DNA from: Rhodospirillaceae bacterium
GTDB taxonomy: Bacteria; Pseudomonadota; Alphaproteobacteria; Rhodospirillales; JABJKH01
NCBI GenBank assembly: GCA_018660465.1
Contig: JABJKH010000065.1
Location: 3,728 to 67,727 of the forward strand
Direction of reading: 5' to 3'
DNA length: 64,000 nucleotides
The notes under the pieces are model-generated. The model had not been told where the DNA came from, made no database searches, and saw only the letters and a program-made list of their open reading frames with translations. Shown in pieces: positions 2,582-24,617 of the stretch. The translations under genes and the position numbers were made by a program. The stretch's first letter is position 1. The number at the start of each line of letters is the position of its first letter.

Positions 2582-4147
2582 CTATTTTGCGTTGACGCGG
2601 GCTGAGCGGCGCTCCAAAGCATCGTGCATACGGTGCTCCAGAACTGTCGTCATCTCTGTGCCCCCCTTTACATTGCGGTATGTCCGGATGATCCTCTTGG
2701 GAAACCGAGTATAGCCAACCAAATAATAGAGCATCGTACAAATTAGCCGGTAGAACGACAGCTCTTTTGGCCCGACACTTTGGTTGGTTTTTAAATGATT
2801 GAGCGAAACATAGTCGCCATAAATAGAGGTCAAAGACAGGAAGTACGAATCTGAAACAACGATGCGTTTCTCGGCAACGAGTTCACGAAAGAGTTCGGTC
2901 CCAGGATAGGCACAAAATAGCTGCATAGAAACTTCGTCAATGCCATGCCACGCGAGCTTCAGTCCGTAAGCCAACGTCCGATAGATATCTATCCTGGATT
3001 CTTTTGGCAGCCCAATCATCAAATTTGCTCGGGTAACGATGCCGATTTTCACCGCTGACATGATTGAACCTGTGAGGCGATCAAGATCGATCCGTTTCTT
3101 GATTCTCTCGAGCGTTCGCTTGGAACCACTTTCCGGAGCATAGACTAAGTAATTGCAGTTAATATCACGGAGTACACGCAACGTATCGTCATCCAGAGCC
3201 TCACTCCGGGTGCCTGACGGTAGCGACCATTTGACTGAGATTTTTTCTTCCGCTAGGCGCTTTCCAAACTCTATAATCCAGCGCTTCTTGGTGATCGCCG
3301 TCAGATCGTATAACTGCACTGCCGTGATATCATATTTCTCTATATGGGTCTTAAGTTCAGCAATAACGTCTTCGATGTCGCGCAGGATATAGCGTGTGGT
3401 CCACATTCCAGGATTGGAGCAGAAGGTACACTGGTACGGACACCCTCTGGAAATCATCATCGGCATATCCCGCTCGGTCATGACGCCGAAAGACTTACCC
3501 GTGGCCCAAAATTTCTCTAGGTAACCATCAGGCCAGTAAGGCCATGGAATAGCATCAACCTCCCGTATGCGATTTTGGCCAGTGTTTTCGACGTAATTTC
3601 CCTGCCCATCGAGAAAGCTGACGCCATTGACTTCATCGAAGCCCTGGCCATTTTCGATACATTCTAGAAGCTCGTAGAAGGTATGCTCGCCTTCGCCACG
3701 CACACAGACATTGATCGCCGGACAGTCCTTTAGACAATATTCGGACAGCGCGGTCACGTGTTCTCCACCGGCGACAATGGTGACATCAGGAAAGGCCTTG
3801 CGAATTGCCATGAGAAGGAGTTTTGCTGCGGGCCATTCACCAGAAAACATAGCTGAAAATGCAATAACATCTGTATTGGCAGGAATGCGCTCAATAATTT
3901 CTTCGAATTTCAGTCCCTGACAAACATGTGACGAAATCGTCTCCATAGGCCATACCCGGTTGAGCCCCTCAGCGACGCCGTCGACAAATGTAAAATCGTA
4001 GCCCTTGTTTTTGATATACGCTGAAAGATAAGCGAATGCGATGGCCGGTGTGGCCTCATTATTTATGGCTGTTTTGGTGTAAACGATTGGGCCTCGAACG
4101 AACGTCACAAACGTCTTCTTATTTGCGGTGGAGTTTTCACCCGTCAT
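2582..4147 (-). CDS. B12-binding-domain radical SAM protein (class B rSAM), paralog 1
   Basis: Cobalamin-binding-type segment VIAFSAMFSGEWP...IVAGGEHVTAL...VRGEGE, followed by the CxxxCxxC cluster motif SRGCPYQCTFCSNP. Hydrophobic C-terminal helix FYRLICTMLYYLVGY. Confidence 0.9.
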   Translation of the reverse strand: MTGENSTANKKTFVTFVRGPIVYTKTAINNEATPAIAFAYLSAYIKNKGYDFTFVDGVAEGLNRVWPMETISSHVCQGLKFEEIIERIPANTDVIAFSAMFSGEWPAAKLLLMAIRKAFPDVTIVAGGEHVTALSEYCLKDCPAINVCVRGEGEHTFYELLECIENGQGFDEVNGVSFLDGQGNYVENTGQNRIREVDAIPWPYWPDGYLEKFWATGKSFGVMTERDMPMMISRGCPYQCTFCSNPGMWTTRYILRDIEDVIAELKTHIEKYDITAVQLYDLTAITKKRWIIEFGKRLAEEKISVKWSLPSGTRSEALDDDTLRVLRDINCNYLVYAPESGSKRTLERIKKRIDLDRLTGSIMSAVKIGIVTRANLMIGLPKESRIDIYRTLAYGLKLAWHGIDEVSMQLFCAYPGTELFRELVAEKRIVVSDSYFLSLTSIYGDYVSLNHLKTNQSVGPKELSFYRLICTMLYYLVGYTRFPKRIIRTYRNVKGGTEMTTVLEHRMHDALERRSARVNAK

Positions 4148-6464: not shown

Positions 6465-8015
6465 ATGTCGTTAGTTACACTGATACGTCCCCCGGTCTTG
6501 GTCGCTAAATGGGCGCACACAACTCCCACGTGCCCACCGATCGGCCTCGCCTATTTAGCGGCGGTGTTAATTGGAAATGACATAGCGGTTAACGTCGTCG
6601 ATGCAGTAGGCAATGCACCCGATCAAATGCTGCCCACGGATGACGAAAGATTCCTCTCTCACGGCCAATCAACCGAAGAAATTATTGAGGGAATCGATCC
6701 AGCAACTCAAATCATTGGCATTTCTTGTATGTTTTCACATGAATGGCCGCTGATCCGATCTTTAATTACGCGATTGAAGGAAGTTTTTCCTCAAATTTTA
6801 ATTGTCGGCGGTGGTGAGCATATAACGGCACTGCCAGAATTCTCTCTCGAGGATTGCGGAGCACTTGACGTTGGGATAATTGGCGAAGGTGAGGAAACAC
6901 TTACCGAGTTGGTTTCTGCGATACTCGAAAACCGACCCCTGGATGCAATAACCGGTATTGTTTATCGGAATAATGGGAGCATTCTTAAAACCGCGGCGCG
7001 CACTAGAATTCGTAATATTGATAACATCGCCCTTCCGGCCTGGGAGTTGTTTCCATTAGACACCTATTTGGATAACGGATATGGGTTCGGTGTCAATCGC
7101 GGGCGATCCATGCCAGTCCTGGCCACCCGCGGTTGCCCGTATCAGTGCACGTTCTGTTCCAACCCGACGATGTGGGGAACTCGGTGGGTTTCGCGTAGCC
7201 CTGAACAAGTGTTCGACGAAATGCTGCAATATCATAAGCGTTATCAAATTGATAACTTCGATTTCTACGACCTGACAGCAATCGTTAAGAAGAAGTGGAT
7301 CGTCGAATTTTGCCGGATGGTCATTGATTCAGGGGTTAAATTCACGTGGCAACTCCCGAGTGGCACCCGCTCGGAAGCGATTGACGAGGAGGTTTCCGAG
7401 CTTTTGTACCAATCCGGTTGCCGCAACATGAGCTACGCTCCCGAAAGTGGATCACCGAGCGTCTTGCTGCGTATTAAGAAAAAGATCGACCTCAAATCCA
7501 TGGAGGCTTCGATGAGAGACTCCATTAGAAATGGCATTAACTGCAAGGCCAACATCATCATTGGATTTCCCAACGAGACTCATAAGGAGATATTTCAAAC
7601 CCTATGGTTCTGCGTCCGAATGGCGGCGATTGGGATTCACGATGTGTCGCTTTCTCCATTTTCTCCATACCCCGGCTCAGAATTGTTCTCGAATATGCAA
7701 AATGACGGCCAAATTCCTGAGTATAGCGACGAATTCTTCTATGGATTGGCTGCATACACAGATTTGACAACAACCACGTCCTGTTCAAAATACGTCGGCG
7801 ACCGAGCGCTTGGATTTTATCGAATTTTCGGCATGCTCCTATTTTACGGCGTTCTTTATCTGTTACGGCCCTGGCGGCTGGTACGCACGCTTCGTAATGT
7901 CTTCGGTGAATTTCAGGAATCCCGCTTGGAAATGTCGCTTCGAGACCTTTACATTCGCTTGTGTAAATCCAAGGATTCTACGGTAGCTACCCCGGCTCGG
8001 AGTACACACAAATGA
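6465..8015 (+). CDS. B12-binding-domain radical SAM protein (class B rSAM), paralog 2
   Basis: IIGISCMFSHEWP...IVGGGEHITAL...IIGEGE, then TRGCPYQCTFCSNP (Cys codons at 7134, 7146, 7155). It aligns along its length with the 2582-4147 product. C-terminal helix FYRIFGMLLFYGVLY. Confidence 0.9.
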   Translation: MSLVTLIRPPVLVAKWAHTTPTCPPIGLAYLAAVLIGNDIAVNVVDAVGNAPDQMLPTDDERFLSHGQSTEEIIEGIDPATQIIGISCMFSHEWPLIRSLITRLKEVFPQILIVGGGEHITALPEFSLEDCGALDVGIIGEGEETLTELVSAILENRPLDAITGIVYRNNGSILKTAARTRIRNIDNIALPAWELFPLDTYLDNGYGFGVNRGRSMPVLATRGCPYQCTFCSNPTMWGTRWVSRSPEQVFDEMLQYHKRYQIDNFDFYDLTAIVKKKWIVEFCRMVIDSGVKFTWQLPSGTRSEAIDEEVSELLYQSGCRNMSYAPESGSPSVLLRIKKKIDLKSMEASMRDSIRNGINCKANIIIGFPNETHKEIFQTLWFCVRMAAIGIHDVSLSPFSPYPGSELFSNMQNDGQIPEYSDEFFYGLAAYTDLTTTTSCSKYVGDRALGFYRIFGMLLFYGVLYLLRPWRLVRTLRNVFGEFQESRLEMSLRDLYIRLCKSKDSTVATPARSTHK

Positions 8016-11235: not shown

Positions 11236-12870
11236 ATGCCTGTTCTCCTCCGCCAATCGTTTGACCTTCCATCGTCTGATTCATACAGAACTTGGTTCTC
11301 GGTCACGGGAACTGAAAGTTTTCTTGATGCCCAATCGAAACGATCTCGATTGGCGGAACAACTTGAAACTGCCTTTATGGAAAGCCGGGAAACTTGGTGG
11401 ACAATCGGTCTAAAAATAAGCCAGGAACCCACAGCCGAGATTTCCCATATGCCAACTGGTGGCGCATTCGGATCAGACTTCGGCGTGATGCTGGCATGGT
11501 CCCGGATTACGGCAGACGTCGCTAAAGACGAAAATGTGTGTTTGGTTTTATGCGACGACCCGTGGCTATTTCGGCATTTAGCCAAACTTTCGGGTGTGAC
11601 GGCAGGCAGGCCGCCACGGCTCCGCCTTACAGAACTAAAACTTTCCATCCGAGGGTGGTTGGCGCGAACCAAGACAGCTCTAAAAAACGCGCTGTTTTCA
11701 ACTCGACTGGTTAAGACCCAAGGCCAGGGCAGCGCAGCCATTCTGGTCTATGGCCATCCGCGCAGCACCGCCGACGGCTTCGATGCTTATTTCGGCGACC
11801 TGATGGCCCATGAACCAGAACTTCAACGCATCCTTCATACTGATTGCGATGCGGCGCGAGCGCGAGAACTCTCATCAAAAGGTCGAACGTCAAGTCTGCA
11901 CGCTTGGGGCCATACGTTTTTTGCGCTCCGTCTAATTTGGACAAAATGGCGGCCTGGGCGAGTTTTTACTGAAGGCAAATACGGCTGGCTGGTGCGCCGC
12001 GCTGCGGCAAAGGAGAACAGTGGCGGAGGCCCCGCCATGAACCGCTGGCAACTTCATTGCCAAGATAATTGGTTGAAAGAAGCAAAACCTTCTCGGGTAT
12101 GCTGGCCTTGGGAAAATCACAGTTGGGAAAGGGGGCTATGCCGCGCTGGTCGGAAACACGGTGTCCACACTCTCGGTTATCAGCACACTGTCGTCGGTCC
12201 CCATCAAATAAATTATTCGACCCGCACCAACCCTGATGGATTGGACAGCATCCCGGAAATAGTCATTTGTGACGGCCCTGCTTATCGAGATGAAGTTGCA
12301 GCTTGGGGCGTGCCTGATGATCGCCTGATCGTCGGTGGTGCCTTTCGGTTTAAAAGGTTTGCACCTGGAAGCCACGATCCATCAGGCCCCGTGTTCGTGC
12401 CATTGTCTGCCGTCCCTGCCGCAGCCCAAAAACAAATCGAGGCTGCGCACCTGTTGGCGGCCTCCGGCCAAAAAGTTCTCGTTAAAGGACATCCCATGTA
12501 TCCGGTGGCGTTCAGCGAGATAGAAAACCTGAGCCGCACAGAAACCCCACTTACGGAGCAAGCCGGTTTGTCCGCTGTGTTATTTTGTACCGGAACGTCT
12601 GGTTTGGAAGCCGTGTTGATGGGCCTCCCGGCCTATCGATTAATGCTCGATGATCGCATTGCGATTGATATCCTGCCTGCCAACATCAATGTGCCTAGCG
12701 TCACATTAGACGACGTCACCGAACAGGTTACTGGAAAGGTTCCGATTCGGCCCGTTAACTGGGATTCAGTTCTAACCGAGCCCGACATAAACCTTTGGCA
12801 TTCGCTGCTTTTCGGTGATATGCACGCGATGAACGACGTTCAAGAACCAGAGAAGAAACAAGTATCGTGA
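11236..12870 (+). CDS. Conserved-looking hypothetical protein; C-terminal half GT-B/TagF/KpsS-like? (function unknown)
   Basis: Long 544-aa ORF, translationally coupled to the next gene (GTGA at 12867-12870). C-terminal KVLVKGHPMYP...VLFCTGTSGLEAVLMGLPAY resembles the nucleotide-binding half of GT-B-type transferases. I recognise no diagnostic motif. Confidence 0.5.
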   Translation: MPVLLRQSFDLPSSDSYRTWFSVTGTESFLDAQSKRSRLAEQLETAFMESRETWWTIGLKISQEPTAEISHMPTGGAFGSDFGVMLAWSRITADVAKDENVCLVLCDDPWLFRHLAKLSGVTAGRPPRLRLTELKLSIRGWLARTKTALKNALFSTRLVKTQGQGSAAILVYGHPRSTADGFDAYFGDLMAHEPELQRILHTDCDAARARELSSKGRTSSLHAWGHTFFALRLIWTKWRPGRVFTEGKYGWLVRRAAAKENSGGGPAMNRWQLHCQDNWLKEAKPSRVCWPWENHSWERGLCRAGRKHGVHTLGYQHTVVGPHQINYSTRTNPDGLDSIPEIVICDGPAYRDEVAAWGVPDDRLIVGGAFRFKRFAPGSHDPSGPVFVPLSAVPAAAQKQIEAAHLLAASGQKVLVKGHPMYPVAFSEIENLSRTETPLTEQAGLSAVLFCTGTSGLEAVLMGLPAYRLMLDDRIAIDILPANINVPSVTLDDVTEQVTGKVPIRPVNWDSVLTEPDINLWHSLLFGDMHAMNDVQEPEKKQVS

Positions 12871-13976
12871 CCAATCTTCCCCTAAAAATTGCCCTCATTG
12901 GCTGCGGTCGCATTGCCGGCCATCATTGCCAATCCATCGGACAAGTTGATGGTGTCGAACTTGCCGCTGTCTGTGATCTGGACGTTGCGAAAGCGAAAGC
13001 CTATGGCGATCAGTTTTCTGTGCCGCATTTCACGGACTATCATGACATGTTCCAAGCAGTCCCCGAGATCGATATCGCCGCCGTCATTACCCCATCAGGC
13101 ATGCACTTTGAACACGGCGCGGACGTGATCGAACGCTATAAAAAACACCTGATCATGGAAAAGCCAACGTTCATGCGGCCCGAACAACTTCATACAGCGT
13201 ATGGCGCTGCGGATAATCACGGGCTTCATATTTTTCCGGTATTCCAGAACCGCAATAACAAGGCTGTGCGGCGCGTGCGAAAAGCGCTGGCGGCGGGCGA
13301 GCTTGGGGATATTCGGATCGTTTCGGTCCGGGTTCGCTGGTGTCGACCGCAGCGATACTATGACATGGCTCCGTGGCGCGGTACCTATTCGCACGATGGT
13401 GGCTGCCTGACCAACCAGGGAATTCATCACGTCGACCTGCTGCGGCATTTGGGTGGTGAGGTCGAGCGAATCAACGCCACCATGCGAACTCTTGGGGCCG
13501 ACATTGAGGTTGAAGATGCCCTGGTTGCCACAATGGCCTATAAGTCGGGTGCGATTGGCAATCTAGAAGTGACGACAGCTGCCAGACCCGATGATTTTGA
13601 GGCGTCGCTCTCAATCGTCGGTTCCGAAGGTCTCGCCCAAATTGGCGGCATTGCCGTGAACGAACTACAAGTATTTACGCCGGACCCAGGTGAGTGCGCC
13701 GACAACAGCGAAGATTTCGTTGGAATCAAAGGCCACGGGGCAGTTTACGGCTACGGCCATACGGATATGTATTCAGACATTGCTGCTTTCTTCCGCGACA
13801 AGTCACCCTATCCTGTAGATCGCAACGATTGCCTTGGGACCTTAAAACTCCTTCACGCATTTTATCGCTCAGATGAAGCGGGCGGTTGGGTCGATGTAGA
13901 CAGTGATGAGCAATCGGTACGCCTTGGCCGCGACAATGACGAAGTCTCCAACCTCTATCGGACACCCGCACCGTGA
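12867..13976 (+). CDS. Gfo/Idh/MocA-family NAD(P)-dependent oxidoreductase
   Basis: N-terminal Rossmann KIALIGCGRIAGHH, EKP motif (IMEKPTF) and a C-terminal alpha/beta domain. Confidence 0.85.
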   Translation: MTNLPLKIALIGCGRIAGHHCQSIGQVDGVELAAVCDLDVAKAKAYGDQFSVPHFTDYHDMFQAVPEIDIAAVITPSGMHFEHGADVIERYKKHLIMEKPTFMRPEQLHTAYGAADNHGLHIFPVFQNRNNKAVRRVRKALAAGELGDIRIVSVRVRWCRPQRYYDMAPWRGTYSHDGGCLTNQGIHHVDLLRHLGGEVERINATMRTLGADIEVEDALVATMAYKSGAIGNLEVTTAARPDDFEASLSIVGSEGLAQIGGIAVNELQVFTPDPGECADNSEDFVGIKGHGAVYGYGHTDMYSDIAAFFRDKSPYPVDRNDCLGTLKLLHAFYRSDEAGGWVDVDSDEQSVRLGRDNDEVSNLYRTPAP

Positions 13977-15019
13977 CCGAACCTCTCAAAATCGGAATTG
14001 CAGGATATGGCGTGGTCGGCAACCGCCGCCGCCAAGTGATCGACAAGCGCTCAGACATGAAGGTCGTCGCTGTTTGCGATCAGAAACTGGGGGGGGATGG
14101 CGTCTTTGACGATGGCGTTAAATTTTTTGGTGAATACAGTCCCCTACTGGAAGAAAATCTCGATGTATTGTTTGTATGCCTGACCAACGATTTAAACCCG
14201 GATGTCAGCATTGCCGGGCTTGAGCGCGGTCTACATGTGTTCTGCGAAAAACCACCGGGGCGAGATGTCGGCGATGTGACGCGGGTAATTGCCTGCCATC
14301 AGAAACACCCCAACCTAAAGCTCAAATATGGATTTAATCACCGCTACCATGATTCGGTCCTGGATGCGCTGCGGCTGGTGCAGTCGGGGGAATTGGGCAA
14401 AGTCATTAATCTCCGGGGACTTTACGGAAAGTCTCAGCTGATTACCTTCGGTCAAAGTTCATGGCGGACAGACAGGAAACTTTCAGGCGGCGGTGTGCTG
14501 CTGGACCAGGGTATTCATATGGTGGACTTGCTGAGGCTATTCGCAGGCGAATTTGTCGATGTGAATAGTTTTATTTCAAACGGTCATTGGAACCACGACG
14601 TCGAAGACAACGCCTATGCCTTGATGCGGACAGAAGCCGGCGTCGTCGCCATGCTGCATTCATCCGCAACCCAATGGCGGCACCGGTTTAATTTGGAAAT
14701 TTCCTTGGAATTGGGCTCGATTACCCTGTCAGGCATCTTATCCGGATCTAAAAGCTACGGCGCGGAAACCATGACCGTGGCACGCACGGCCGGTGATGAT
14801 ATGGGCGATCCCCGAGAAGAAACCACGCGCTACAACAAAGACACTTCATGGGCCGACGAGGTGGCCGAATTCGCAACGGCTATCCAGGATAACACTCCGA
14901 TTACCAACGGCTCCGCTGAAGACGCATTGAAAACAATGGGACTGGTCTATCGTATTTACTGCGCGGATTCCGAATGGAAAGCTAAATGGGGCTTGAGCCA
15001 TGACGTTCCGGCGTTATAA
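13973..15019 (+). CDS. Gfo/Idh/MocA-family NAD(P)-dependent oxidoreductase (second, tandem)
   Basis: LKIGIAGYGVVGNRR and CEKPPG. 4-nt overlap with the upstream paralog. Confidence 0.85.
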   Translation: MTEPLKIGIAGYGVVGNRRRQVIDKRSDMKVVAVCDQKLGGDGVFDDGVKFFGEYSPLLEENLDVLFVCLTNDLNPDVSIAGLERGLHVFCEKPPGRDVGDVTRVIACHQKHPNLKLKYGFNHRYHDSVLDALRLVQSGELGKVINLRGLYGKSQLITFGQSSWRTDRKLSGGGVLLDQGIHMVDLLRLFAGEFVDVNSFISNGHWNHDVEDNAYALMRTEAGVVAMLHSSATQWRHRFNLEISLELGSITLSGILSGSKSYGAETMTVARTAGDDMGDPREETTRYNKDTSWADEVAEFATAIQDNTPITNGSAEDALKTMGLVYRIYCADSEWKAKWGLSHDVPAL

Positions 15020-15049: not shown

Positions 15050-15439
15050 ATGAGCGCACACCGCCAGACTGACAGAGCCTTCGGTATTATGTTTGCCGTG
15101 GTTTTTTCCATTGTCTTTGCCATTGCGCACTTCGGTTTTGCTGTTCGCTTGGACTGGGCGTTATGGGTGGCAGGTGGTTTTTTGGTCCTCGCGCTCCTGG
15201 TCCCTTGGCTGCTGATGCCGTTAAACAGACTTTGGGAAAAGTTTGCGTTTCGTCTCGGCTTTGTCAGCAACCACCTCCTGCTGGGCGCTTTCTTTTTCCT
15301 TTTTGTTTTCCCAATTAGCCTTATGCTCCGCGTCTTCGGTTCCGATCCGATGCATCGGAAGTTCGAGCCAAAATCAGACACGTATTGGTCCAAGGTCACC
15401 CGTCACACGAACCGGGAGACCTTTGGTGATATGTTTTAG
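15050..15439 (+). CDS. SxtJ-like small membrane protein
   Basis: 129 aa with three hydrophobic segments and a C-terminal ...LMLRVFGSDPMHRKFEPKSDTYWSKV...GDMF. This matches my recollection of the SxtJ family that accompanies carbamoyltransferases. Confidence 0.65.
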   Translation: MSAHRQTDRAFGIMFAVVFSIVFAIAHFGFAVRLDWALWVAGGFLVLALLVPWLLMPLNRLWEKFAFRLGFVSNHLLLGAFFFLFVFPISLMLRVFGSDPMHRKFEPKSDTYWSKVTRHTNRETFGDMF

Positions 15440-15452
15440 ACGGAATTAATCT

Positions 15453-15605
15453 ATGCTCTCAGTCTTCGGCCAACTTATTAAGTTTATGCGCGTCTATAAG
15501 AAATTCTGGATGGCGCCGCTTATTTTTGGGCTGGTCGCCCTCGGCGGTCTGTTAATCGCCGCCCAAAGCACCGCCATCGCTCCCTTTATTTATATGATTT
15601 TCTAG
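15453..15605 (+). CDS. DUF5989 / SxtK-like 50-aa membrane peptide (not in supplied ORF track)
   Basis: Manual translation: MLSVFGQLIKFMRVYKKFWMAPLIFGLVALGGLLIAAQSTAIAPFIYMIF*. It has a basic KKFW segment, a single TM and the family-typical C-terminal APFIY-x-x-F. It lies between the SxtJ-like gene and the carbamoyltransferase. Confidence 0.65.
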   Translation: MLSVFGQLIKFMRVYKKFWMAPLIFGLVALGGLLIAAQSTAIAPFIYMIF

Positions 15606-15617
15606 GCGCATCTCACC

Positions 15618-17411
15618 TTGATCGTTCTCGGCATTTCAGCATTTTACCATGACAGCGCCGCGGCCCTGGTCCGCGACGGTGAAATTGTTGCGGCCGCACA
15701 GGAAGAGCGCTTCACGCGAAAGAAAAATGATTCTGAATTTCCCGCAAATGCCATCGCCTATTGCTTGAACGAAGCTGGCGTTACGCTTGATGACGTCGAC
15801 TATGTTGGATTTTACGATAAGCCGTTGCTGACCTTTAACAGGCTATTAGAGACTTATCTTTCTTTTGCACCCCGAGGATTGCCGTCATTTGTTAAGGCGA
15901 TCCCGGTTTGGGTTAAAGAAAAAATTCTTCAAAAAAATCTGATTTTGAAAGGCGTTAATGGGCTTGATCTCGGAACAACCGACGAAGATAAAATCCTGTT
16001 CGGGTTTCACCATCATTCCCATGCCGCCAGTGCCTTCTACCCGTCGCCCTTTGATGAGGCGGCAATTCTGATTATGGATGGCGTCGGAGAATGGGCGACA
16101 ACGTCCACAGGCATCGGCAAGGGCAATGATGTTACCTTGGAAAAAGAAATTCGTTTTCCTCATTCCCTGGGAATGCTGTATTCCGCATTTACCTCTTATC
16201 TAGGTTTTAAAATCAACGATGGCGAATACAAGGTCATGGGACTGGCCCCCTATGGGGAGCCGAAATACGTTGATGTGATGCGGGACAATCTAATCGATTT
16301 CAAAGATGACGGCTCGTTTCGCCTGAACATGGATTATTTTAATTATTGCATCGGCCTGACCATGACCAATAGCAAGTTTGCCGACTTGCTTGGCGGGCCT
16401 ACCAAACATCCGGCCCAGCCCATGACCCAGCGCGATATGGACATCGCCCGCTCGGTTCAGGTGATAACAGAGGAGGCTGTTTTAAATCTTTGTCGCGGCT
16501 TGCAAAAAGAAACCGGGCAAAAAAATTTATGCATGGCGGGGGGCGTTGCGCTCAACTGTGTCGCAAATGGTAGATTATTACGTGAAGGGCCGTTTGAGAA
16601 TATTTGGATACAACCTGCAGCAGGCGATGCCGGCGCATCATTAGGTGTCGCTTTGGCGATTTCCCATAGTCAAGGTGGCGTTGACCGAAAACCCGCAAAC
16701 GGGTCTAGAGACGCCATGCAAGGATCCTATTTAGGGCCCGCCTACGCCGAGGATACTGTTAAGGAAATCTTGGATACGGCCGGTGCAAACTATGACATCT
16801 TGGAAGATGCGGAATTGTTTAAAAATGTCGCCGAGGTATTGGCGGACGAAAAGGTTGTCGGCTGGTTTCAAGGGCGGACAGAGTTTGGTCCAAGGGCGCT
16901 CGGCAACCGGTCCATTCTGGGTGACCCCCGTTCCGAACGCATGCAGCGGATGCTTAATCTCAAGATAAAATACCGGGAAAGTTTTAGGCCCTTTGCACCA
17001 GCAGTTTTGCGCGAAGACGTTTCAGAATTTTTCGACCTAGATGGTGACAGCCCCTACATGCTGCTGGTCGCGCAAGTGAAAGACAAATTACACCAAGACC
17101 TATCTGAAGCAGAGGCTGCGCTAAAAGGCTTAGATAAACTCTATGCCGTTCGCAGCACGGTCCCCGCCATTACCCATGTCGATTATTCAGCCCGCATCCA
17201 AACAGTTCACACCGATACCAACCCGCGCTTCCATAAATTACTTGAAACGTTCAAGGAACAATCCGGCAATGGGATGTTGGTAAACACCAGCTTTAATGTC
17301 CGCGATGAGCCAATCGTCTGTTCGCCAGAGGATGCGTATCGGTGTTTCATGGCCACCGAAATGGACATGCTTGTGCTGGGCAACGTGGTCCTGTTGAAGG
17401 AGAACCAGTGA
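15618..17411 (+). CDS. NodU/CmcH-family carbamoyltransferase
   Basis: N-terminal MIVLGISAFYHDSAAALVRDGEIVAAAQEERFTRKK, then ...GGVALNCVANG...NTSFNVRDEPIV. 597 aa. TTG start. Confidence 0.9.
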   Translation: MIVLGISAFYHDSAAALVRDGEIVAAAQEERFTRKKNDSEFPANAIAYCLNEAGVTLDDVDYVGFYDKPLLTFNRLLETYLSFAPRGLPSFVKAIPVWVKEKILQKNLILKGVNGLDLGTTDEDKILFGFHHHSHAASAFYPSPFDEAAILIMDGVGEWATTSTGIGKGNDVTLEKEIRFPHSLGMLYSAFTSYLGFKINDGEYKVMGLAPYGEPKYVDVMRDNLIDFKDDGSFRLNMDYFNYCIGLTMTNSKFADLLGGPTKHPAQPMTQRDMDIARSVQVITEEAVLNLCRGLQKETGQKNLCMAGGVALNCVANGRLLREGPFENIWIQPAAGDAGASLGVALAISHSQGGVDRKPANGSRDAMQGSYLGPAYAEDTVKEILDTAGANYDILEDAELFKNVAEVLADEKVVGWFQGRTEFGPRALGNRSILGDPRSERMQRMLNLKIKYRESFRPFAPAVLREDVSEFFDLDGDSPYMLLVAQVKDKLHQDLSEAEAALKGLDKLYAVRSTVPAITHVDYSARIQTVHTDTNPRFHKLLETFKEQSGNGMLVNTSFNVRDEPIVCSPEDAYRCFMATEMDMLVLGNVVLLKENQ

Positions 17412-18421
17412 TGGGGGCTCTTGAAACACCGATGTTTTCCGACCGAATTCTTGCCACCTTAAAAGCACCCGGAGGAGCGGACGACACGACCATGGAATTG
17501 GTCGACGGCGGTCTCAGGTGTACTGAAACAGGTGAGGCGTCTCCCTACATTGATGGCATCCCGTCGCTTTATGTTCCCAATGAAGGCGAAGGCAAGGACG
17601 TCACGGCGCGGGTAAAATCGTTTTATGAAGAGAACCCGTTTCCCAGCTACGAAGGGTTGGAAGAATTCGGCGAACTCGTGAACAAGGGAAGTCACAATCC
17701 CTTCTCAGCACAGTTGCTGAAAGCCATCGGCTACAACAAGACAGTGCTGGAATGCGGCTGCGGCACAGGTCAACTCAGCCATTTTTTACAGCTCAATAAC
17801 AATCATGTCCTCGGTATTGATATGTCGTTGGGGAGCCTGCGCCTAGCAGTGGAACACAAACTTCGAAATAGCCTCGAACGATCAGCCTTCGCGCAAATGA
17901 ATATCTTCGACATGGCGATTAAGGATAACTCATTCGACGTGGTGATTTCCCACGGTGTGCTTCACCATACCTTTGATGCCAAACGTGCGTTCGCGCAAAT
18001 TTGCCGCAAGGTTAAACCCGGGGGCATTATCATGGTCGGCCTCTACAACAGCTACGCTCGTATTCCGACATGGCTTAGATCCAAGGTCATTGGGGTCTTA
18101 GGCACAAACATTGATTACGTGGTCAGAAACCGTATCGAAGACGAACGCAAGGCTGATATCTGGGTGAAGGATCAATACTATAACCCTCATGAAACCTGGC
18201 ACTCGGTCGGGGAAGTCCTTGGTTGGTTCAAGGAAAATGGAATCGATTACCTGAATGCATCACCGGCCATCATGGGTACTGATGGAGAGGACACTGCTAA
18301 TTTATTTGATGAGACAAGCCCGGGAAACGGCTATCAACGCGCCGTCACTCAGGTTTCCTGGCTTGGCACCATCGCCCGAGAAGGGGCCTTGTTTGATGTC
18401 ATTGGTCGCAAAGCTCAATAG
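17411..18421 (+). CDS. Class I SAM-dependent methyltransferase with N-terminal Trm112-like ribbon
   Basis: The likely start is the ATG at 17411, overlapping the carbamoyltransferase stop (TGATG); the track start at 17342 lies inside the upstream gene. N-terminal ILATLKAPGG...LRCTETGEASPYIDGIPSLYV. Motif I VLECGCGTGQLSHFL, then ISHGVLHHTFD and VKPGG. Confidence 0.8.
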   Translation: MGALETPMFSDRILATLKAPGGADDTTMELVDGGLRCTETGEASPYIDGIPSLYVPNEGEGKDVTARVKSFYEENPFPSYEGLEEFGELVNKGSHNPFSAQLLKAIGYNKTVLECGCGTGQLSHFLQLNNNHVLGIDMSLGSLRLAVEHKLRNSLERSAFAQMNIFDMAIKDNSFDVVISHGVLHHTFDAKRAFAQICRKVKPGGIIMVGLYNSYARIPTWLRSKVIGVLGTNIDYVVRNRIEDERKADIWVKDQYYNPHETWHSVGEVLGWFKENGIDYLNASPAIMGTDGEDTANLFDETSPGNGYQRAVTQVSWLGTIAREGALFDVIGRKAQ

Positions 18422-19501
18422 ATGGACGAGGGCGCAGCAAAATTAACCTGGAAGGGGCGGCTGATTGCATCTTTCGTAGGACTGCTGCTTTTAGTTTTAA
18501 TTTCTGAAGGCGTACTCCGGGTCGGCATGCCGCACTGGAGAGATTTTTATAGCGGATGGTTTATGCGCACAATTTCTGTGCCGAACCACGGCATTGTAAC
18601 AACTGGCCTGCCAGGGTTTGATGGCTATTTTGCCCAGAACAATGGTGATTTTCGAGTAAAAATAAATATCAATTCCTTTGGACTTCGTAATCCAGAACCA
18701 GTCTCAAATGCAAAGGGTCGTACCTGGATCATTGGCGATTCAATGGCCTTTGGTTGGGGTGTCGAACAACAGGAAGTGTATTCCAGCGTAATTGGAAAAA
18801 TTCATGGCCCAACTTATAATGTCGCCAGCCCAGGCACCGACGTTTGTGGTTATCAAGCGCTAACGGCCCGAATGCCGAAGAACGACATACCCCGAGCGGT
18901 TATAGTTGGCCTAATTCTGGAAAACGATATCTTAAACAAAAATTGCCAGGCTCAGGCCAAAGCCCAAATGGATTTAAAGGCGTTTTTAAGTAAAGAAGAA
19001 AAAAAGACATTAACTTGGCCGACTTTAAAACGACAACTAACCGAATTTTCTGCACTTTATAATTTTATGGCGGTTGGCATTAAACGCATTGGTTTAGTGA
19101 GAGAAATTTTAACGTCGCTCGGAATTATTCGCACCCTTGAATTAGAAAAAGGGCAGTTCACTGCCCCAGAAATAAATGCCAGCGTGAAAAGTACGGTGAG
19201 CGAGCTTATAAACCTTAAGGCCATGTTTCCAAAAAGAACACCCTTTGCCGTACTAGTAGCCCCTACCCGCTTTGAGCTTAAAGAATCAACCGATTATTAT
19301 ACAAGCTTGCGTCTGGCTGTGCTCCGAGAATTAAAGGCAAATAATATTTCTGTAATTGACCCATATCCGCAATTTCAAAAAGCCGGGTATTCTAAAATAC
19401 ATTTCGCCCACGACGGCCATTGGACGGTGCTTGGGCACAAGCTTGCCGCAGAGGAAGCGGCGAAATGGCTGAAACAAAATTTACCAGCTAGCGCGAGATA
19501 A
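18422..19501 (+). CDS. SGNH/GDSL-family hydrolase/acyl-esterase-like protein with N-terminal membrane anchor
   Basis: N-terminal TM (LIASFVGLLLLVLISEGVL). Block I WIIGDSMAFGWGV, block III LILENDI, block V HFAHDGHWTVLGH (DxxH). Confidence 0.7.
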   Translation: MDEGAAKLTWKGRLIASFVGLLLLVLISEGVLRVGMPHWRDFYSGWFMRTISVPNHGIVTTGLPGFDGYFAQNNGDFRVKININSFGLRNPEPVSNAKGRTWIIGDSMAFGWGVEQQEVYSSVIGKIHGPTYNVASPGTDVCGYQALTARMPKNDIPRAVIVGLILENDILNKNCQAQAKAQMDLKAFLSKEEKKTLTWPTLKRQLTEFSALYNFMAVGIKRIGLVREILTSLGIIRTLELEKGQFTAPEINASVKSTVSELINLKAMFPKRTPFAVLVAPTRFELKESTDYYTSLRLAVLRELKANNISVIDPYPQFQKAGYSKIHFAHDGHWTVLGHKLAAEEAAKWLKQNLPASAR

Positions 19502-19506
19502 GAAAT

Positions 19507-20271
19507 ATGAAAATAATTGGCGTTGTCCCCGCCCGCATGGCGGCCAGCCGGTTTCCTGGCAAACCCTTGCACCCCATTTTAGGCCGCCCAATGCTGGAGC
19601 ACTGTTTTGAACGGGCAAAATTTTATCCTAAGTGGGACGGGTTATTTATAGCGACCTGTGACACAGAGATTGAAGATTTTGCAACTTCAAAAAATTATCC
19701 GGTGATCATGACTGCTGATACCCATACGCGCGCGCTTGACCGGGTTGCGGAAGCTGCTGAGAAATGTGATGTCGATTTGGCTGAAGACGACATTGTCGTA
19801 TGTGTCCAAGGCGACGAACCCTTGCTAGGTGATGATGTAATCGACGCGGTGGTGACACCGTTCGAGAGCGATTCGACGGTTCGGGGAACCATGCTAGCGG
19901 TTCCCATCCATGATGAAGAAACCTTCCTAAACCCCGATATCGTCAAGTTAGTTGCGGACTTGAATGGTGATATTCTCTACACGTCGCGGAGCCCCATTCC
20001 CTACGGCAAGAAATTTTCGCCCGATCTTGGTGCACTTCGAGTCGGCGGTATTTTTGGCTTTCGGTGGGATTTCTTAAAATGGTTCACGGCAACTCCTGAA
20101 TCGCCTCTTGAGATCAAAGAAGCTTGCGATTCAAACCGCATCTGTGACAATGGCTTTCGTCAGCGTATGGCCCCCATTCCCTATCGAGCCTATGTGTCTG
20201 TCGACAGCCCCGAGGATATTGGTCGTGTTGAAGCTGTAATGAAGTCTGATTCTCTTTGGGATAAGTATTAA
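19507..20271 (+). CDS. KdsB/NeuA-family cytidylyltransferase (CMP-ulosonic/acidic sugar synthetase-like)
   Basis: N-terminal MKIIGVVPARMAASRFPGKPLHPILGRPML and VQGDEPL, hallmarks of CTP_transf_3 enzymes. Confidence 0.8.
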   Translation: MKIIGVVPARMAASRFPGKPLHPILGRPMLEHCFERAKFYPKWDGLFIATCDTEIEDFATSKNYPVIMTADTHTRALDRVAEAAEKCDVDLAEDDIVVCVQGDEPLLGDDVIDAVVTPFESDSTVRGTMLAVPIHDEETFLNPDIVKLVADLNGDILYTSRSPIPYGKKFSPDLGALRVGGIFGFRWDFLKWFTATPESPLEIKEACDSNRICDNGFRQRMAPIPYRAYVSVDSPEDIGRVEAVMKSDSLWDKY

Positions 20272-20955
20272 ATGAATTCTTTTAAGGCCATTATCTTTGA
20301 CCTGGATGGCACCCTAATTGACAGCGTCCCCGACGTGCGGGCCGCTGTAAATAGAGTGCTCGACGAAATAGGTCGTCCATCGCTATCTCTCGAAGACATT
20401 ACCGGCATGATCGGCGAAGGAGCCCAGGTCATGTTGAAAAAAGTTATGGAACAAACTGGTGGATATACGCCAGACATGGAAGAAGAATATCTGGGGCGGT
20501 TCTTGGAAACGTACAAGGCGCACCCGGCGGATCACACGTTGGTTTATCCTGGCGTGTTCAACGTATTGGATCAGCTAAAAGCAGACGGAATTTCCCTAGG
20601 ACTGTGCACAAATAAACCCAGCACAACCACTCTGCCAGCAGTAGCGGCGTTAGACCTGGAAAAATATTTCGAAGCTATCGTCTGTGCCGATATGGTAAAG
20701 CATCGAAAACCAGATGGCCGCCATCTTCTAAACATTTTAGAGCGTATGGGAGCCGACCCCAAAAGTGCCGTTATGGTTGGCGACAGTGAAACGGATATCG
20801 CTGCCGCAGTCGATGCGGGCCTACCTGCCATCGCCGTTTCCTATGGATACTGCCATGTTCCGTTGGATGAGCTACCCTGCGATATTTTAATCGATAATAT
20901 GAGCGAATTGCCCCGAGCACTGGCTGAGATTAGCAAAGGCCAAAGCACCTCGTGA
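20272..20955 (+). CDS. HAD-superfamily phosphatase (phosphoglycolate-phosphatase/Gph-like)
   Basis: Motif I IIFDLDGTLIDS, motif II LCTNKP, motif III/IV K...VGDSETDIAAA. Confidence 0.85.
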   Translation: MNSFKAIIFDLDGTLIDSVPDVRAAVNRVLDEIGRPSLSLEDITGMIGEGAQVMLKKVMEQTGGYTPDMEEEYLGRFLETYKAHPADHTLVYPGVFNVLDQLKADGISLGLCTNKPSTTTLPAVAALDLEKYFEAIVCADMVKHRKPDGRHLLNILERMGADPKSAVMVGDSETDIAAAVDAGLPAIAVSYGYCHVPLDELPCDILIDNMSELPRALAEISKGQSTS

Positions 20956-21902
20956 CTAAGGTCGCCGTCACATCGCGTTCATTTTCCCGCCACCCTGTTC
21001 TGCGGGCAGCGCTATTGGAACGCTACGATAACGTCACCTTCAACGACGACGGAAAAAAAATAACGGGTGCCGATTTACTCGCGTACTTAGATGGACACGA
21101 CAAGGCAATTACGGCGCTCGAAATTATCGACCATGCTTTGTTGCAGGCATTGCCCGGCCTGAAGGTGATCTCCAAGTATGGCGTTGGCTATGACATGGTT
21201 GATTTGGACGCCATGGTCGATCATAGCGTCAGGCTGGGTTGGACCGGGGGGGTTAACAAGCGGTCGGTCTCAGAGTTGGTTATCTCGATGGCGGTTGCGT
21301 TGCTGCGGCATGTGCCCATCGCAAACGGGGAAATGCGCACGGGGACTTTTCGCCAGCATGTCGGTCGTCAGCTGTCTGATTGCACGATCGGCATCGTTGG
21401 GTGTGGGCATGTCGGCAAGGACCTCGCGAAACTTCTACGCGCTTTTGGTTGCCGGGTCTTGGCCAACGATATTTTAGATTTTCCTGAATTCTACAGCGAA
21501 ACCGGCGTTATGCCTGCCAGTCTTGAAACGGTCCTAAAAGACTCAGAAGTTGTGACCCTGCACCTGCAATTAGATGACACCACGAAAAATATACTGGACG
21601 AAAGACACCTCGGCTTAATGAAACAAGGTGCTGTCCTCATTAATGCAGCGCGGGGCGGATTAGTGGATGAGGCGGCTCTAAAGTCAGTACTCAAATCCGG
21701 TGCGTTGGCCGGTGCTGGGTTTGATGTGTTTCGCACAGAGCCGCCAGATGATTTGGAATTGCTGAATTTGCCCAACTTTCTGGCGACACCGCATATTGGC
21801 GGCAGCGCGGAAGAGGCAATCTTAAACATGGGACGGGCAGCGATTGCCGGTCTCGATGATAATCAAATACCAGAGCGCGGCGTGTTCCCCGAAGGTTGGT
21901 AA
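20952..21902 (+). CDS. D-isomer-specific 2-hydroxyacid dehydrogenase (phosphoglycerate-dehydrogenase-like)
   Basis: GTG start overlapping the HAD stop. NAD site IGIVGCGHVGKDLAKLLRAFGCRV, then NAARGGLVDEAAL and the catalytic region TPHIGGSAEE. Confidence 0.85.
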   Translation: MTKVAVTSRSFSRHPVLRAALLERYDNVTFNDDGKKITGADLLAYLDGHDKAITALEIIDHALLQALPGLKVISKYGVGYDMVDLDAMVDHSVRLGWTGGVNKRSVSELVISMAVALLRHVPIANGEMRTGTFRQHVGRQLSDCTIGIVGCGHVGKDLAKLLRAFGCRVLANDILDFPEFYSETGVMPASLETVLKDSEVVTLHLQLDDTTKNILDERHLGLMKQGAVLINAARGGLVDEAALKSVLKSGALAGAGFDVFRTEPPDDLELLNLPNFLATPHIGGSAEEAILNMGRAAIAGLDDNQIPERGVFPEGW

Positions 21903-21905
21903 ACT

Positions 21906-22820
21906 CTAATCTGGTTTGCGGGCGGAGATGTACCAAGCAAACCCCATAACACGACCCAGAAATTGCTCCAGCTTTGACTGCATCGGCCACGGCTGGCCAT
22001 AGACTAAAACACCGCCAGGATGGGTGCCATAACGCCGAATTTGATAGCGCCGATAGATGCGGCCTAGCTTTGGGATCAGATAAAAATAGAATTCGCCTTT
22101 GCGAAATTTTATATCTTTAAATCGTTGAAAAATATTCTTTATTTGGGATCCCGTATAACATCGTGTAATAGGGTTTTCCACGGTCTGGGCGTTCTTTCCG
22201 CCCCATTCCGTGGCCTTTCCAAGCCAATTGGGGTCCCCAAAAGCCTTTCCTTTGAGCACGCCGACACACAGGAACATATTAACCCAATAATGCCACGAGC
22301 TTTTGCAATACAGCAGGATGACGGCCTGCCCGCCGGGCTTGAGAACCCGAAAAACTTCGGCAATGGACGCTTCCGTATCCAAGGTGTGGTGCAAGACGCC
22401 ATTGGAATAAACGATGTCAAACGAGCCATCCGAAAACGGCAACTTTTCCGCATCGCCTTGAAGGGCGGCGCATTCGTTGGCGACATCTCCCATCAACTCA
22501 AATTTGGCCGCTGTCGCGCGCGCACGTTGAAACGTCAAATCAATGCTGGTCATCTTTGCACCGTGCTTGGCAAACAGCGCCGAATGGCCCCCCGCCCCGG
22601 GTCCGATTTCAAGAACCCGCTTTCCGGCCAACTTAGCCAATGGCATTTCCACCGCCGCCAAGTGCCCGCGCAGACGAAACATATCTTCCAGATCTTCCAG
22701 ACTTTCAAACAAGCGGTCGCGGGTCAGGTCGCGGTCCACGTCCTCATAAAGCGAGTCATAGAGAGAGCCCCAAAAGTCCTGGATATTTTCTTTGGTTGCG
22801 GGATCGGGCATGCAGGTCAT
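21906..22820 (-). CDS. Class I SAM-dependent methyltransferase
   Basis: Motif I VLEIGPGAGGHSALFAKHGA, then YSNGVLHHTLD and LKPGG. Same subfamily signature (GVLHHT-D) as the 17411-18421 product. Confidence 0.8.
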   Translation of the reverse strand: MTCMPDPATKENIQDFWGSLYDSLYEDVDRDLTRDRLFESLEDLEDMFRLRGHLAAVEMPLAKLAGKRVLEIGPGAGGHSALFAKHGAKMTSIDLTFQRARATAAKFELMGDVANECAALQGDAEKLPFSDGSFDIVYSNGVLHHTLDTEASIAEVFRVLKPGGQAVILLYCKSSWHYWVNMFLCVGVLKGKAFGDPNWLGKATEWGGKNAQTVENPITRCYTGSQIKNIFQRFKDIKFRKGEFYFYLIPKLGRIYRRYQIRRYGTHPGGVLVYGQPWPMQSKLEQFLGRVMGFAWYISARKPD

Positions 22821-22906
22821 CTGTGGTTTCGGAGTATGGAGCCTTGTATAACCGCCTGGAGCGACGGGGCCAATGGGTTTTACCCAGCCCCCGAATATTC
22901 AACCCA

Positions 22907-24613
22907 ATGCTAAACGCGCTTAGCCGCAAAGCTCGGCAAGTCATTAAAGACCCTGTTCTTAGGCAATGGCTTATTGGTAGGGCTCTGGGAAGGTATCAGG
23001 GCGAGCCCGTATTTACGCCTCATCGGCCGCCGTATTTGGAAGGCCTGCTACCCCTAAAGCAGCAATTGCCCAATCCGCCCACTTCTTTTTCAGAACTTGG
23101 AATAGATAAGCCGCGATCGGCGATTACTCTGCCATTGCCGGGACTAGATGTGACCCTGAACCCGGGGGACGAGGACCGTCTTTTCGAGCAGAGCTTTCAG
23201 GATACCGAAACCTTGCTCGCGGTCCATCGGTTTGCTTGGATTCCCCTGCTGGGGAGAGACCTTGATCCGGCTTGGGTAAACTCTCTCTGGCAGGCTTGGC
23301 AGACCACGTATCGCCAACCGAATGATGCCTGGCCCTGGCATCCGTATACTGCGGCTGAGCGAGCGATTAATATTTTAGACTTTGCCGGTCGGCATGGTTT
23401 GCCGGGCTCTGCGAACGACACTTTAAAATTACTCGCGGCCCATGGCCCCGCGATTGCGGAACAACTCGAATACTTTGGCGACCATCATACGTCCAACCAC
23501 ATGGCCAATAATGGGCGGGGGTTGTTTAAATTAGGGTTGGCGCTTGGTATCGATAGCTACGCGGACATGGGGGCCAAAATCCTCCTGAATGAAGCCGAAC
23601 GAATTTTTCTTCCATCAGGAATTTTGCGCGAAGGATCAAGCCACTACCACCTGTTGTTAACGCGCAACTACGCCGACGCCTGGCTTGTGGCGGAGCGCTT
23701 TAACCGAGCCGAGGCCCTCGCATTGAAAACCATCACCAAAAAAGCAATGTCGGTAATTCCAAATCTCTTTTTGTCTGGCGGCATGCCGTTGGTAGGCGAT
23801 ATTTCGCCAGACTGTCCACCCGGCTTTTTATCGTGTCTCTTCAACGATAACGACGGTTGGTTTGACTTATTAGACGAAGATGATGCGGCTCTTATAAAAT
23901 CTCTTCGAGGCTCGGCTGAAGAGGGAACGGTACGCGAAGACGGCTGGCTGAAGGCTGAGTTTGGTCCTTGGTCGGGCCTCTGGCATGCGAGTCCAGAAGG
24001 TTGGTCCCACATGCCCGGTCATGGCCATCAGGACTGTGGAAGTTTCGAGCTTCATTTTGGTGAAGAGCCGATTTTTGTAGATCCAGGGCGGGGGGCCTAC
24101 GGATTAACTGGTGAAGCGCAATATTTCCAATCGGAGGCGGCTCACAACGGAATCGTCATTGATGGCTGTGAACCCTTTCCGGCCAATAAACCGTACTATT
24201 GTGGGTTATTTCGGGGAAAATACGCCAAAAATGCACCAAAATTGGAAAAAGCAGAAAATAATGTCGCACTAACCTATGGAGGATATAGCCGCCTTCGGTC
24301 TGTCGATAGCGTGACGCGACAGTGGGCGTTTTCGGAGAGTGCCGTGGAGATCGAGGATCAGATTTCCGGATCAAATTCCCATGACATTGTGCAGCGGCTC
24401 TATACACCGCTTGCCATCTCTCTAAACGATGATTCTGTTACCTTAACTGGCAAAGAGAGCGCATTTCGGCTGACGTCTCAAACGGGTTCTATCAAAGCAA
24501 TGCCGACAAAAATTTGGAAGGCGTATGGTCAATCTTTGCCTGGCACAGTTATTCAAATCACTAGCCGCAGCAACCTCCCTTGGACAAGCGCCCTTAAATT
24601 GGAAGTAGCTTAG
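22907..24613 (+). CDS. Heparinase II/III-like (alginate-lyase superfamily) protein
   Basis: C-terminal MPGHGHQDCGSFELHFGEEPIFVDPGRGAY...AHNG is the Hepar_II_III signature. The ATG at 22907 is preferred because the track start at 22640 overlaps the divergent methyltransferase by 181 nt. A GTG at 22823 is an alternative start. Confidence 0.75.
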   Translation: MLNALSRKARQVIKDPVLRQWLIGRALGRYQGEPVFTPHRPPYLEGLLPLKQQLPNPPTSFSELGIDKPRSAITLPLPGLDVTLNPGDEDRLFEQSFQDTETLLAVHRFAWIPLLGRDLDPAWVNSLWQAWQTTYRQPNDAWPWHPYTAAERAINILDFAGRHGLPGSANDTLKLLAAHGPAIAEQLEYFGDHHTSNHMANNGRGLFKLGLALGIDSYADMGAKILLNEAERIFLPSGILREGSSHYHLLLTRNYADAWLVAERFNRAEALALKTITKKAMSVIPNLFLSGGMPLVGDISPDCPPGFLSCLFNDNDGWFDLLDEDDAALIKSLRGSAEEGTVREDGWLKAEFGPWSGLWHASPEGWSHMPGHGHQDCGSFELHFGEEPIFVDPGRGAYGLTGEAQYFQSEAAHNGIVIDGCEPFPANKPYYCGLFRGKYAKNAPKLEKAENNVALTYGGYSRLRSVDSVTRQWAFSESAVEIEDQISGSNSHDIVQRLYTPLAISLNDDSVTLTGKESAFRLTSQTGSIKAMPTKIWKAYGQSLPGTVIQITSRSNLPWTSALKLEVA

Positions 24614-24617
24614 CGGT

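Follow-up and report, generated by a model that had tools for sequence, protein, structure and literature searches.

O-acylation systems of the Dlt and PatAB type rely on an acyl-shuttle hexapeptide, FXYXXF, whose tyrosine takes over the acyl group from an MBOAT protein and delivers it to the catalytic serine of an SGNH partner; the hexapeptide forms the very C-terminus, on the extracytoplasmic side, of the microprotein DltX or of the MBOAT itself (PMC12148441, PMC13653941). DltX of Bacillus thuringiensis comprises 11 basic residues, a 22-residue transmembrane (TM) helix and a 15-residue outer tail ending ...TSTFIYNEF (PMC5541007), whereas in NgPatA the motif reads FIYANF; according to the authors of the PatAB study, pathways other than Dlt lack a DltX-like microprotein (PMC12148441). 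Here we describe a candidate counterpart of these shuttles in a 64-kb stretch of Rhodospirillaceae DNA (contig JABJKH010000065.1; hereafter the window), in which an SxtJ-family membrane protein, a 50-residue DUF5989 peptide and a carbamoyltransferase (CT) are encoded side by side, followed by a methyltransferase (MT) and a membrane-anchored SGNH protein.

SxtJ and SxtK, the latter a DUF5989 protein, have reportedly been of 'unknown' function since the saxitoxin cluster was described in 2008. The literature yielded no demonstrated function for either, papers of mid-2026 still speaking of hypothetical helpers, and our search returned no paper that mentions DUF5989. In the saxitoxin cluster sxtI, sxtJ, sxtK and sxtL measure 1839, 405, 165 and 1281 bp (PMC2679770), and SxtL carries the annotation of a predicted decarbamoylase (PMC2679770, PMC3037375). 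The genes sxtJ, sxtK and sxtL travel together according to a paper on the suomilide biosynthetic gene cluster (PMC10157211). In Dolichospermum a duplicated I2-J2-K2 set decays together. Lyngbya wollei, which has no carbamoylated toxins, carries a truncated sxtI, lacks sxtL and has no sxtJ or sxtK listed (PMC3037375).

The trio of SxtJ, DUF5989 and CT is already known in databases, where the NCBI labels 'SxtJ family membrane protein' and 'DUF5989 family protein' are in use beside 'carbamoyltransferase', and its generality is not new. What appears to be new is a shuttle reading: within the literature covered, which did not include Schultz et al. 2023, no paper tied acyl shuttles to carbamoyltransferases, SxtK or DUF5989. 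From the motif, the predicted topology and the gene context we propose, at a probability of roughly 45%, that the genes of the window form an O-carbamoylation system with several components that follows the same acyl-tyrosine shuttle principle as Dlt and PatAB: CT and SxtJ would load Tyr47 of DUF5989 and the SGNH protein would pass the carbamoyl group to the glycan.

The DUF5989 microprotein and its C-terminal motif

The original prediction had placed the three genes of the trio in a row, and all three open reading frames (ORFs) were recovered on the forward strand as it described (Table 1). Its family assignments were borne out by profile searches: the 50-residue peptide matched Pfam PF19451 (DUF5989) over positions 2-49 of 49 with 63.3 bits (cut-off 27; E = 2.2e-17), and the 129-residue protein matched PF19588 (SxtJ) with 42.4 bits (cut-off 24.4; E = 1.3e-10). 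Both small ORFs are true genes: their order is kept in 37 species-level genomes and substitutions in the 50-codon ORF across 19 species are biased by codon position (228/89/483 at positions 1/2/3).

The window peptide has a basic amphipathic N-terminus, one TM helix (residues 19-37, approximately) and a 13-residue uncharged tail that ends F45-I-Y47-M-I-F50-COOH. In an alignment spanning 28-90% identity the sole invariant residues of the family were P22, L30, F45, Y47 and F50. Lysine and arginine together average 4.4 in the first 20 residues and 0.07 in the last 14 (n = 119 sequences), a bias from which an N-in/C-out orientation is predicted for what would be a single-pass protein of about 50 residues.

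An exhaustive HMMER search delimited a family of at least 5,316 clusters at 50% identity. The ending [F/L]xYxxF-COOH was found in 119 of the top 150 representatives, and in most of the others the motif sits before an apparent read-through; among distinct copies at the loci, 118/119 end in it. To assess the specificity of the ending, six-frame ORFs of 40 aa or more were taken from 122 loci; among these 8,183 ORFs it was carried by 125 DUF5989 ORFs, by 8/8 MBOATs and by no others. Across the whole window an FxYxxF ending occurs in one segment only, that of DUF5989.

The layout of DUF5989 (about 50 residues, a basic N-terminus, one TM helix, an uncharged outer tail of 13-15 residues and FIYxxF) is the layout of DltX, and PatA repeats it where its last peripheral helix is followed by a TM helix and the motif. 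The linkers are also alike, reading ...SQGSSAKFIYFDF in the MBOAT and ...SQGSAVAPFIYTLF in DUF5989. With hhalign, DUF5989 aligned in register with MBOAT C-termini (P = 8e-4, low probability) and with DltX (P = 0.0085, low probability). Homology to the DltX and MBOAT tails is only suggestive. To judge by its sequence, DUF5989 carries a C-terminal FXYXXF with an invariant tyrosine as DltX-type shuttles do.

The same tail might serve as a non-covalent coupling peptide, with the CT acting in the cytoplasm and the DUF5989 tail docking periplasmic enzymes (SGNH or exosortase-system proteins) and thereby coordinating export or assembly. The recurrence of the trio beside exosortase/EpsI in loci without an SGNH gene would fit, as would the finding that DltX's C-terminal peptide binds DltD and DltE non-covalently with a micromolar Kd (PMC13653941). 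In all characterised cases, however, the motif is a covalent carrier (PMC12148441), and the near-absolute conservation of a tyrosine, rather than of any aromatic residue, indicates a role for its hydroxyl; we therefore judge a purely non-covalent function quite improbable.

The lead to the shuttle idea came from second, divergent DUF5989 copies, which in two genomes are followed immediately by genes for a GDSL protein and an MBOAT. Pairing of a GDSL/SGNH protein with an MBOAT is the hallmark of trans-membrane O-acylation of the Dlt/Pat/Alg type. A conserved protein of 445-482 aa without a Pfam match always comes after the DUF5989-GDSL-MBOAT block (L047:10543-11880, L031:3370-4707 and L026:4369-5817) and could belong to the same O-acylation system as an additional component.

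Natural fusions of DUF5989 with SxtJ or with CT were considered among the 150 representatives and rejected, the long forms being over-called N-termini or read-through; representative P0254 reads through into a CT, and no long form matches SxtJ. NCBIfam contains no model for the SxtJ-family or the DUF5989 protein. In Rhodobacteraceae SC52 a 49-aa DUF5989 gene lies in an uncalled gap between a hypothetical protein and the CT (L137:8001-8150), and no gene is listed at the DUF5989 of Sinorhizobium meliloti 1021 (pSymB 484417-484566; L132:9004-9153), where the record is essentially without annotation. DUF5989 is therefore probably under-counted in genome annotations. Three orphan copies with an intact motif were also seen (L095:5040-5213, L108:6736-6912 and L111:7992-8150); they have no CT, SxtJ, SGNH or MBOAT gene within about 5 kb, and their neighbours encode an MFS transporter, a family 2 glycosyltransferase (GT2), a GAF protein and MacB-like permeases.

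Gene context of the trio and its partner proteins

Two sets of loci were compared: 37 from a genome scan with one genome per species, and 80 from a metagenome scan that was far more diverse and gave at least 483 confirmed matches. The genome loci belong mostly to Rhodospirillales, with others from Magnetococcales, Reyranella, a deltaproteobacterial metagenome-assembled genome (MAG) and Paramagnetospirillum marisnigri. Their conserved cassette runs TIGR04326-like protein, two GFO/IDH/MocA (GFO) oxidoreductases, SxtJ, DUF5989, CT, MT, SGNH, KdsB-like protein, HAD phosphatase and 2-hydroxyacid dehydrogenase; a few of the 37 are reduced to SxtJ-DUF5989-CT-MT.

Where at least 3 kb of flank was available on each side of DUF5989, both CT and SxtJ were encoded within 5 kb of it in 27/27 genome and 20/22 metagenome loci (47/49), and after de-replication at 70% the two accompanied DUF5989 in 13/13 lineages. 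The MT was present in 27/27 and 12/22 of these loci, respectively. The metagenome architectures included SxtJ-K-CT-MT-SGNH, CT-SxtJ-K-SGNH, short-SxtJ-CT-K followed by an exosortase, and MBOAT-linked forms (K denoting DUF5989), and the contexts ranged over O-antigen-like cassettes, exosortase exopolysaccharide (EPS) loci, one lipopolysaccharide (LPS)-core locus beside a GT9 heptosyltransferase, and isolated islands. Because this co-occurrence is near-constant across several phyla and such varied contexts, SxtJ and SxtK are generic CT partners outside toxin synthesis, as had originally been argued from the window.

Annotated plasmids carrying the trio are those of cultured Planctomycetes, Gemmatimonadota, Rhodobacterales and Sinorhizobium. 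Genes for SGNH, SxtJ, DUF5989 and CT are clustered on megaplasmids of S. meliloti 1021 and S. fredii NGR234 and in Rhodobacteraceae SC52. The four-gene island at 482210-486412 on pSymB of S. meliloti 1021 is flanked by genes for a two-component system, a peptidase, a ROK protein and an ABC transporter, and that of SC52 by partition and RND efflux genes; in the annotated flanks of both there are no glycan-synthesis neighbours, and the CT is the sole donor-making enzyme. By analogy, the isolated islands appear to be organised like stand-alone post-assembly modification systems such as dlt.

In some loci (L089:6707-7015, L097:1793-3943, L119:1085-2328 and L127:949-2192) DUF5989 is doubled around the MT, in the order SxtJ-K-MT-K-CT or variants of it; the MT is linked to the CT as tightly as the SGNH gene is in this cassette type. 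The trio was repeatedly found beside exosortase (EpsH)/EpsI genes with no adjacent SGNH (L070:8169-9068, L120:8191-9111, L126:164-1063 and L106:473-1909), and the same holds for three Planctomycete plasmids (L133, L135 and L136), which suggests a link of carbamoylation to PEP-CTERM/exosortase EPS systems.

The CT of the window matched Carbam_trans_N (349.8 bits) and Carbam_trans_C (243.9 bits) over the full length of each domain, and a PDB search gave whole-length homology to the solved NovN, GdmN and TobZ (E about 1e-94 to 1e-81). With its Kae1-like and YrdC-like domains, a GPRALG motif at residue 424 and an HHHSH cluster, it has the features of a NodU/CmcH/TobZ O-carbamoyltransferase and is expected to form carbamoyl-AMP from ATP and carbamoyl phosphate.

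SxtJ, whose Pfam domain was present in 15/15 close homologues, shows three hydrophobic segments in the window, of which the third has a kink at P88, and a basic tail that contains Y112-W113; the C-terminal residue is aromatic. Conserved among 84 relatives are F11-G12, the loop P52-x-x-L-x-P-x-N-x-x-W62, G97-x-D99, Y112-W113 and, in the middle of the third hydrophobic segment, P88 (99%); the C-terminal aromatic residue occurs in all members inspected. Short forms of 84-107 aa consist of an amphipathic helix, one proline-kinked hydrophobic segment and a tail, with alanine in place of the tyrosine, and Tyr112 was for this reason rejected as a universal cytoplasmic relay residue. The most economical reading of SxtJ is a membrane adaptor for the CT at the cytoplasmic face. 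An AlphaFold2 model built on a 16-sequence alignment (pLDDT 67, pTM 0.26) was an implausible single long helix and was not used.

Thirteen diverse SGNH neighbours share an N-terminal TM segment and invariant G105 and S107 (block I) and H333 (block V, D-x-H), with N133 and D169 near-invariant; a hydrophobic anchor was present in 60/60 relatives. They look catalytically competent, and the window protein belongs to the SGNH superfamily by its GDS Ser107, block III asparagine and D-x-His333. By sequence these partners resemble generic SGNH/esterase-like proteins more than DltD or PatB, with weak similarity to AlgJ/AlgX and matches to SGNH proteins in the PDB. A single-sequence AlphaFold2 model was unusable (pLDDT 43). 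Relative to the rest of the same contigs, SGNH genes within 4.5 kb of DUF5989 were enriched 5.8-fold in the metagenomes (p = 0.0025) and 4.7-fold in the genomes (p = 8e-5). A membrane-anchored SGNH partner of the kind expected for a DltX-type system was present in the window and in about half of the lineages overall.

The original prediction saw SxtJ and DUF5989 as a tether, that is, as proteins that only anchor the CT at the cytoplasmic face for direct carbamoylation of a lipid-linked glycan, the SGNH protein being unrelated. The near-obligate co-occurrence of the three genes agrees with this, as do the direct action of related CTs on their acceptors, the trio without SGNH in about half of the lineages, and the basic, probably cytoplasmic tail of SxtJ, which suits docking. 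A passive anchor should be conserved where it contacts the CT, yet the invariant residues of DUF5989 form the predicted outer F-x-Y-x-x-F, an ending otherwise exclusive to MBOAT shuttles; the SGNH enrichment and the SGNH-containing islands are left unexplained, and in saxitoxin synthesis the substrate is not lipid-linked. The tether idea is hence not well supported and we hold it to be unlikely for the pair, while SxtJ alone may be a tether.

The SGNH protein might instead be an editing esterase that removes the carbamoyl group added by the CT with the help of SxtJ and SxtK, or another O-acyl group, and so tunes the level of modification. This would accord with the decarbamoylase annotation of SxtL and with the resemblance of the partners to generic esterases. 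That annotation is itself a prediction, however, and such a model gives no reason for the motif of DUF5989; the N-terminal TM anchor and the co-loss of the gene with sxtI fit a transferase partner at least as well. We consider editing the least probable of the explanations weighed here.

A putative route for carbamoyl across the membrane

Under the shuttle proposal, the cytoplasmic CT would activate carbamoyl phosphate to carbamoyl-AMP, the formation of which is established chemistry in the TobZ family. SxtJ would keep the CT at the inner face of the membrane and pair with DUF5989, and Tyr47, in the outer-face tail, would carry the carbamoyl group as O-carbamoyl-tyrosine, as motif, architecture and context suggest. 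Chemically, an aryl carbamate is able to donate its carbamoyl group to a serine hydrolase. The TM-anchored SGNH protein, by analogy with DltD and PatB, would take the group on Ser107 and transfer it to a hydroxyl of the exported or assembled glycan. The target in the window is probably a methylated, CMP-activated acidic sugar from the surrounding cassette, and the O-carbamoylated sugar originally predicted for this glycan is a reasonable expectation. Overall, the data suggest that the trio carbamoylates surface sugars outside the cytoplasm, which goes beyond mere anchoring of an enzyme.

Dlt (DltA, DltC, the MBOAT DltB, DltX and DltD), which D-alanylates teichoic acids, likewise has a stand-alone microprotein of about 50 residues with an outer FIYxxF, a TM-anchored SGNH partner and a cytoplasmic adenylate-forming donor enzyme, and both may form a self-contained module. 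The window system differs in having neither an MBOAT nor a carrier protein, its donor side being a Kae1/YrdC-type CT with the small SxtJ; in the proposed transfer of carbamoyl instead of an aminoacyl ester; in its Gram-negative hosts; and in an SGNH gene that is not always adjacent. An MBOAT, the loader of DltX-type systems, was found neither in the window nor in most loci, and CT and SxtJ occupy its place; the trio system is therefore not a member of the Dlt/MBOAT group and is at most a variant of it. PatA/PatB, AlgI/J/X and WssH/I show the same FXYXXF-COOH after a peripheral and a TM helix and a periplasmic SGNH transferase partner, but there the motif is fused to an MBOAT with a tunnel and a catalytic histidine, and the donor is acetyl-CoA.

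The saxitoxin proteins SxtI-SxtJ-SxtK-SxtL belong to the same four families, and the corresponding order CT-SxtJ-DUF5989-SGNH was found in loci L049-L051, L079, L081 and L093. Gene sizes match those of the saxitoxin cluster in L049-L051 (products of 611, 133-140, 52 and 420 aa in L049 and L050; L051 has only the C-terminal part of the CT), and SxtK is likened here by family, order and size. The window differs from the saxitoxin cluster in its order (J-K-CT-MT-SGNH), in lying in a glycan locus and in a substrate that would be a polysaccharide instead of an alkaloid. TobZ, NovN and GdmN (and NodU/NolO) share full-length homology, the GPRALG motif and the expected carbamoyl-AMP chemistry with the CT; TobZ, NovN and GdmN, in contrast, act alone on small-molecule or oligosaccharide acceptors, and no SxtJ or DUF5989 partners have been reported for them.

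Several points weigh against the shuttle proposal. The key mechanistic gap is that the CT is cytoplasmic whereas the tyrosine is predicted to lie outside, with no conduit evident; SxtJ, with three hydrophobic segments or one in the short forms, is far smaller than the tunnel of an MBOAT, and the solved relatives TobZ, NovN and GdmN transfer straight to their final substrates without partners. The likeness of DUF5989 to DltX may be convergent, since the hhalign probabilities were low (5-24%), and HMMER comparison of DUF5989 with Pfam at E ≤ 10 and with PDB chains gave no match to DltX (DUF3687) or MBOAT. The DUF5989-GDSL-MBOAT blocks, considered as CT-independent evidence, were downgraded, since a CT cassette is found about 9 kb away in the same loci and their MBOATs have their own motif. 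On the SGNH side, the charge bias of the anchor is weak (2.4 against 1.95), an SGNH neighbour is present in no more than 13/22 diverse loci and 6/13 lineages after de-replication, and no SGNH gene was found within 8 kb in the three Planctomycete plasmids or the exosortase-type loci; where none is adjacent, the proposal has to suppose a different acceptor enzyme or an SGNH gene farther away.

More tentative still is the wider claim that DUF5989 (SxtK) is the carrier of an unrecognised trans-envelope carbamoylation pathway as widespread as its at least 5,316 clusters, in which CT and SxtJ would be a loader of a new type and the SGNH proteins, SxtL among them, the terminal carbamoyltransferases. 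If this were true, it would be the first tyrosine shuttle with neither an MBOAT nor an AT3 protein, moving carbamoyl and not acyl; saxitoxin synthesis would be completed outside the cytoplasm, and the assignment of SxtL as a decarbamoylase would be wrong. The shuttle reading contradicts the published view of Dlt as the sole user of a stand-alone shuttle microprotein, and it suggests that O-antigens, EPS and LPS cores may receive their O-carbamoyl groups once they have been exported. It would also carry over to carbamoylation a mechanism so far linked with MBOAT and AT3 proteins and with acyl groups. Linking DUF5989 to shuttles provides a residue-level falsifiable hypothesis for SxtJ and SxtK, for which the isolated four-gene island on pSymB of S. 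meliloti 1021 is a tractable model system; if the link is wrong, the finding is one more case of an already annotated gene trio.

The window operon and its glycan locus

SxtJ, DUF5989, CT, MT and SGNH form one tight operon, with junctions of 13 nt, 12 nt, a 1-nt overlap and 0 nt, the start of the MT overlapping the stop of the CT. A Rhodospirillaceae MAG encodes a protein 100% identical to the DUF5989 peptide, and the synteny is common to ten contigs of that species.

Table 1. Features of the operon and of the adjoining cassette (coordinates refer to the 64-kb window).
Feature	Position	Strand	Length	Basis
SxtJ-family membrane protein	15050..15439	+	129 aa	Pfam PF19588, 15 close homologues
DUF5989 microprotein	15453..15605	+	50 aa	Pfam PF19451
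DUF5989 codons 45-50, F-I-Y-M-I-F, match to the acyl-shuttle motif	15585..15602	+		Definition in PMC12148441
NodU/CmcH/TobZ-type O-carbamoyltransferase, soluble	15618..17411	+	597 aa, TTG start	Both Pfam domains
Class I S-adenosylmethionine (SAM)-dependent methyltransferase	17411..18421	+	336 aa, gene-caller start	Pfam Methyltransf_31/11/25
Membrane-anchored SGNH/GDSL protein	18422..19501	+	359 aa	Weak Pfam ALGX and Lipase_GDSL_2 matches
Upstream cassette part: TIGR04326-like surface-carbohydrate protein and two GFO/IDH/MocA oxidoreductases	11236..15019	+
Downstream cassette part: KdsB-like cytidylyltransferase, HAD phosphatase, D-2-hydroxyacid dehydrogenase	19507..21902	+

The trio lies, as had been noted from the sequence, inside a polysaccharide locus with an MT and a membrane-anchored SGNH protein next to it. 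This surface-glycan locus spans 0.4-44.5 kb of the window (about 44 kb) and encodes GT2, GT4 and GT1 transferases, Wzy_C, sugar-nucleotide enzymes and radical SAM proteins. The cassette at 11236-12870 and 19507-21902, conserved in 37 species, looks like a pathway for a CMP-activated acidic sugar, which the KdsB-like, HAD and 2-hydroxyacid dehydrogenase proteins probably make and which would then be modified.

Two B12-binding radical SAM proteins are encoded in the locus at 2582-4147 (-) and 6465-8015 (+), adjoined by a YfhO-like GT-C protein (4342-6417); the pair hints at unusual C-methylation or other radical chemistry on a sugar. The locus further contains a heparinase II/III-like protein and two AsnB-type glutamine amidotransferases (22640-26510 and 37427-39298), and AsnB genes like those of the window come after the trio in exosortase-type loci (L085:9694-13032).

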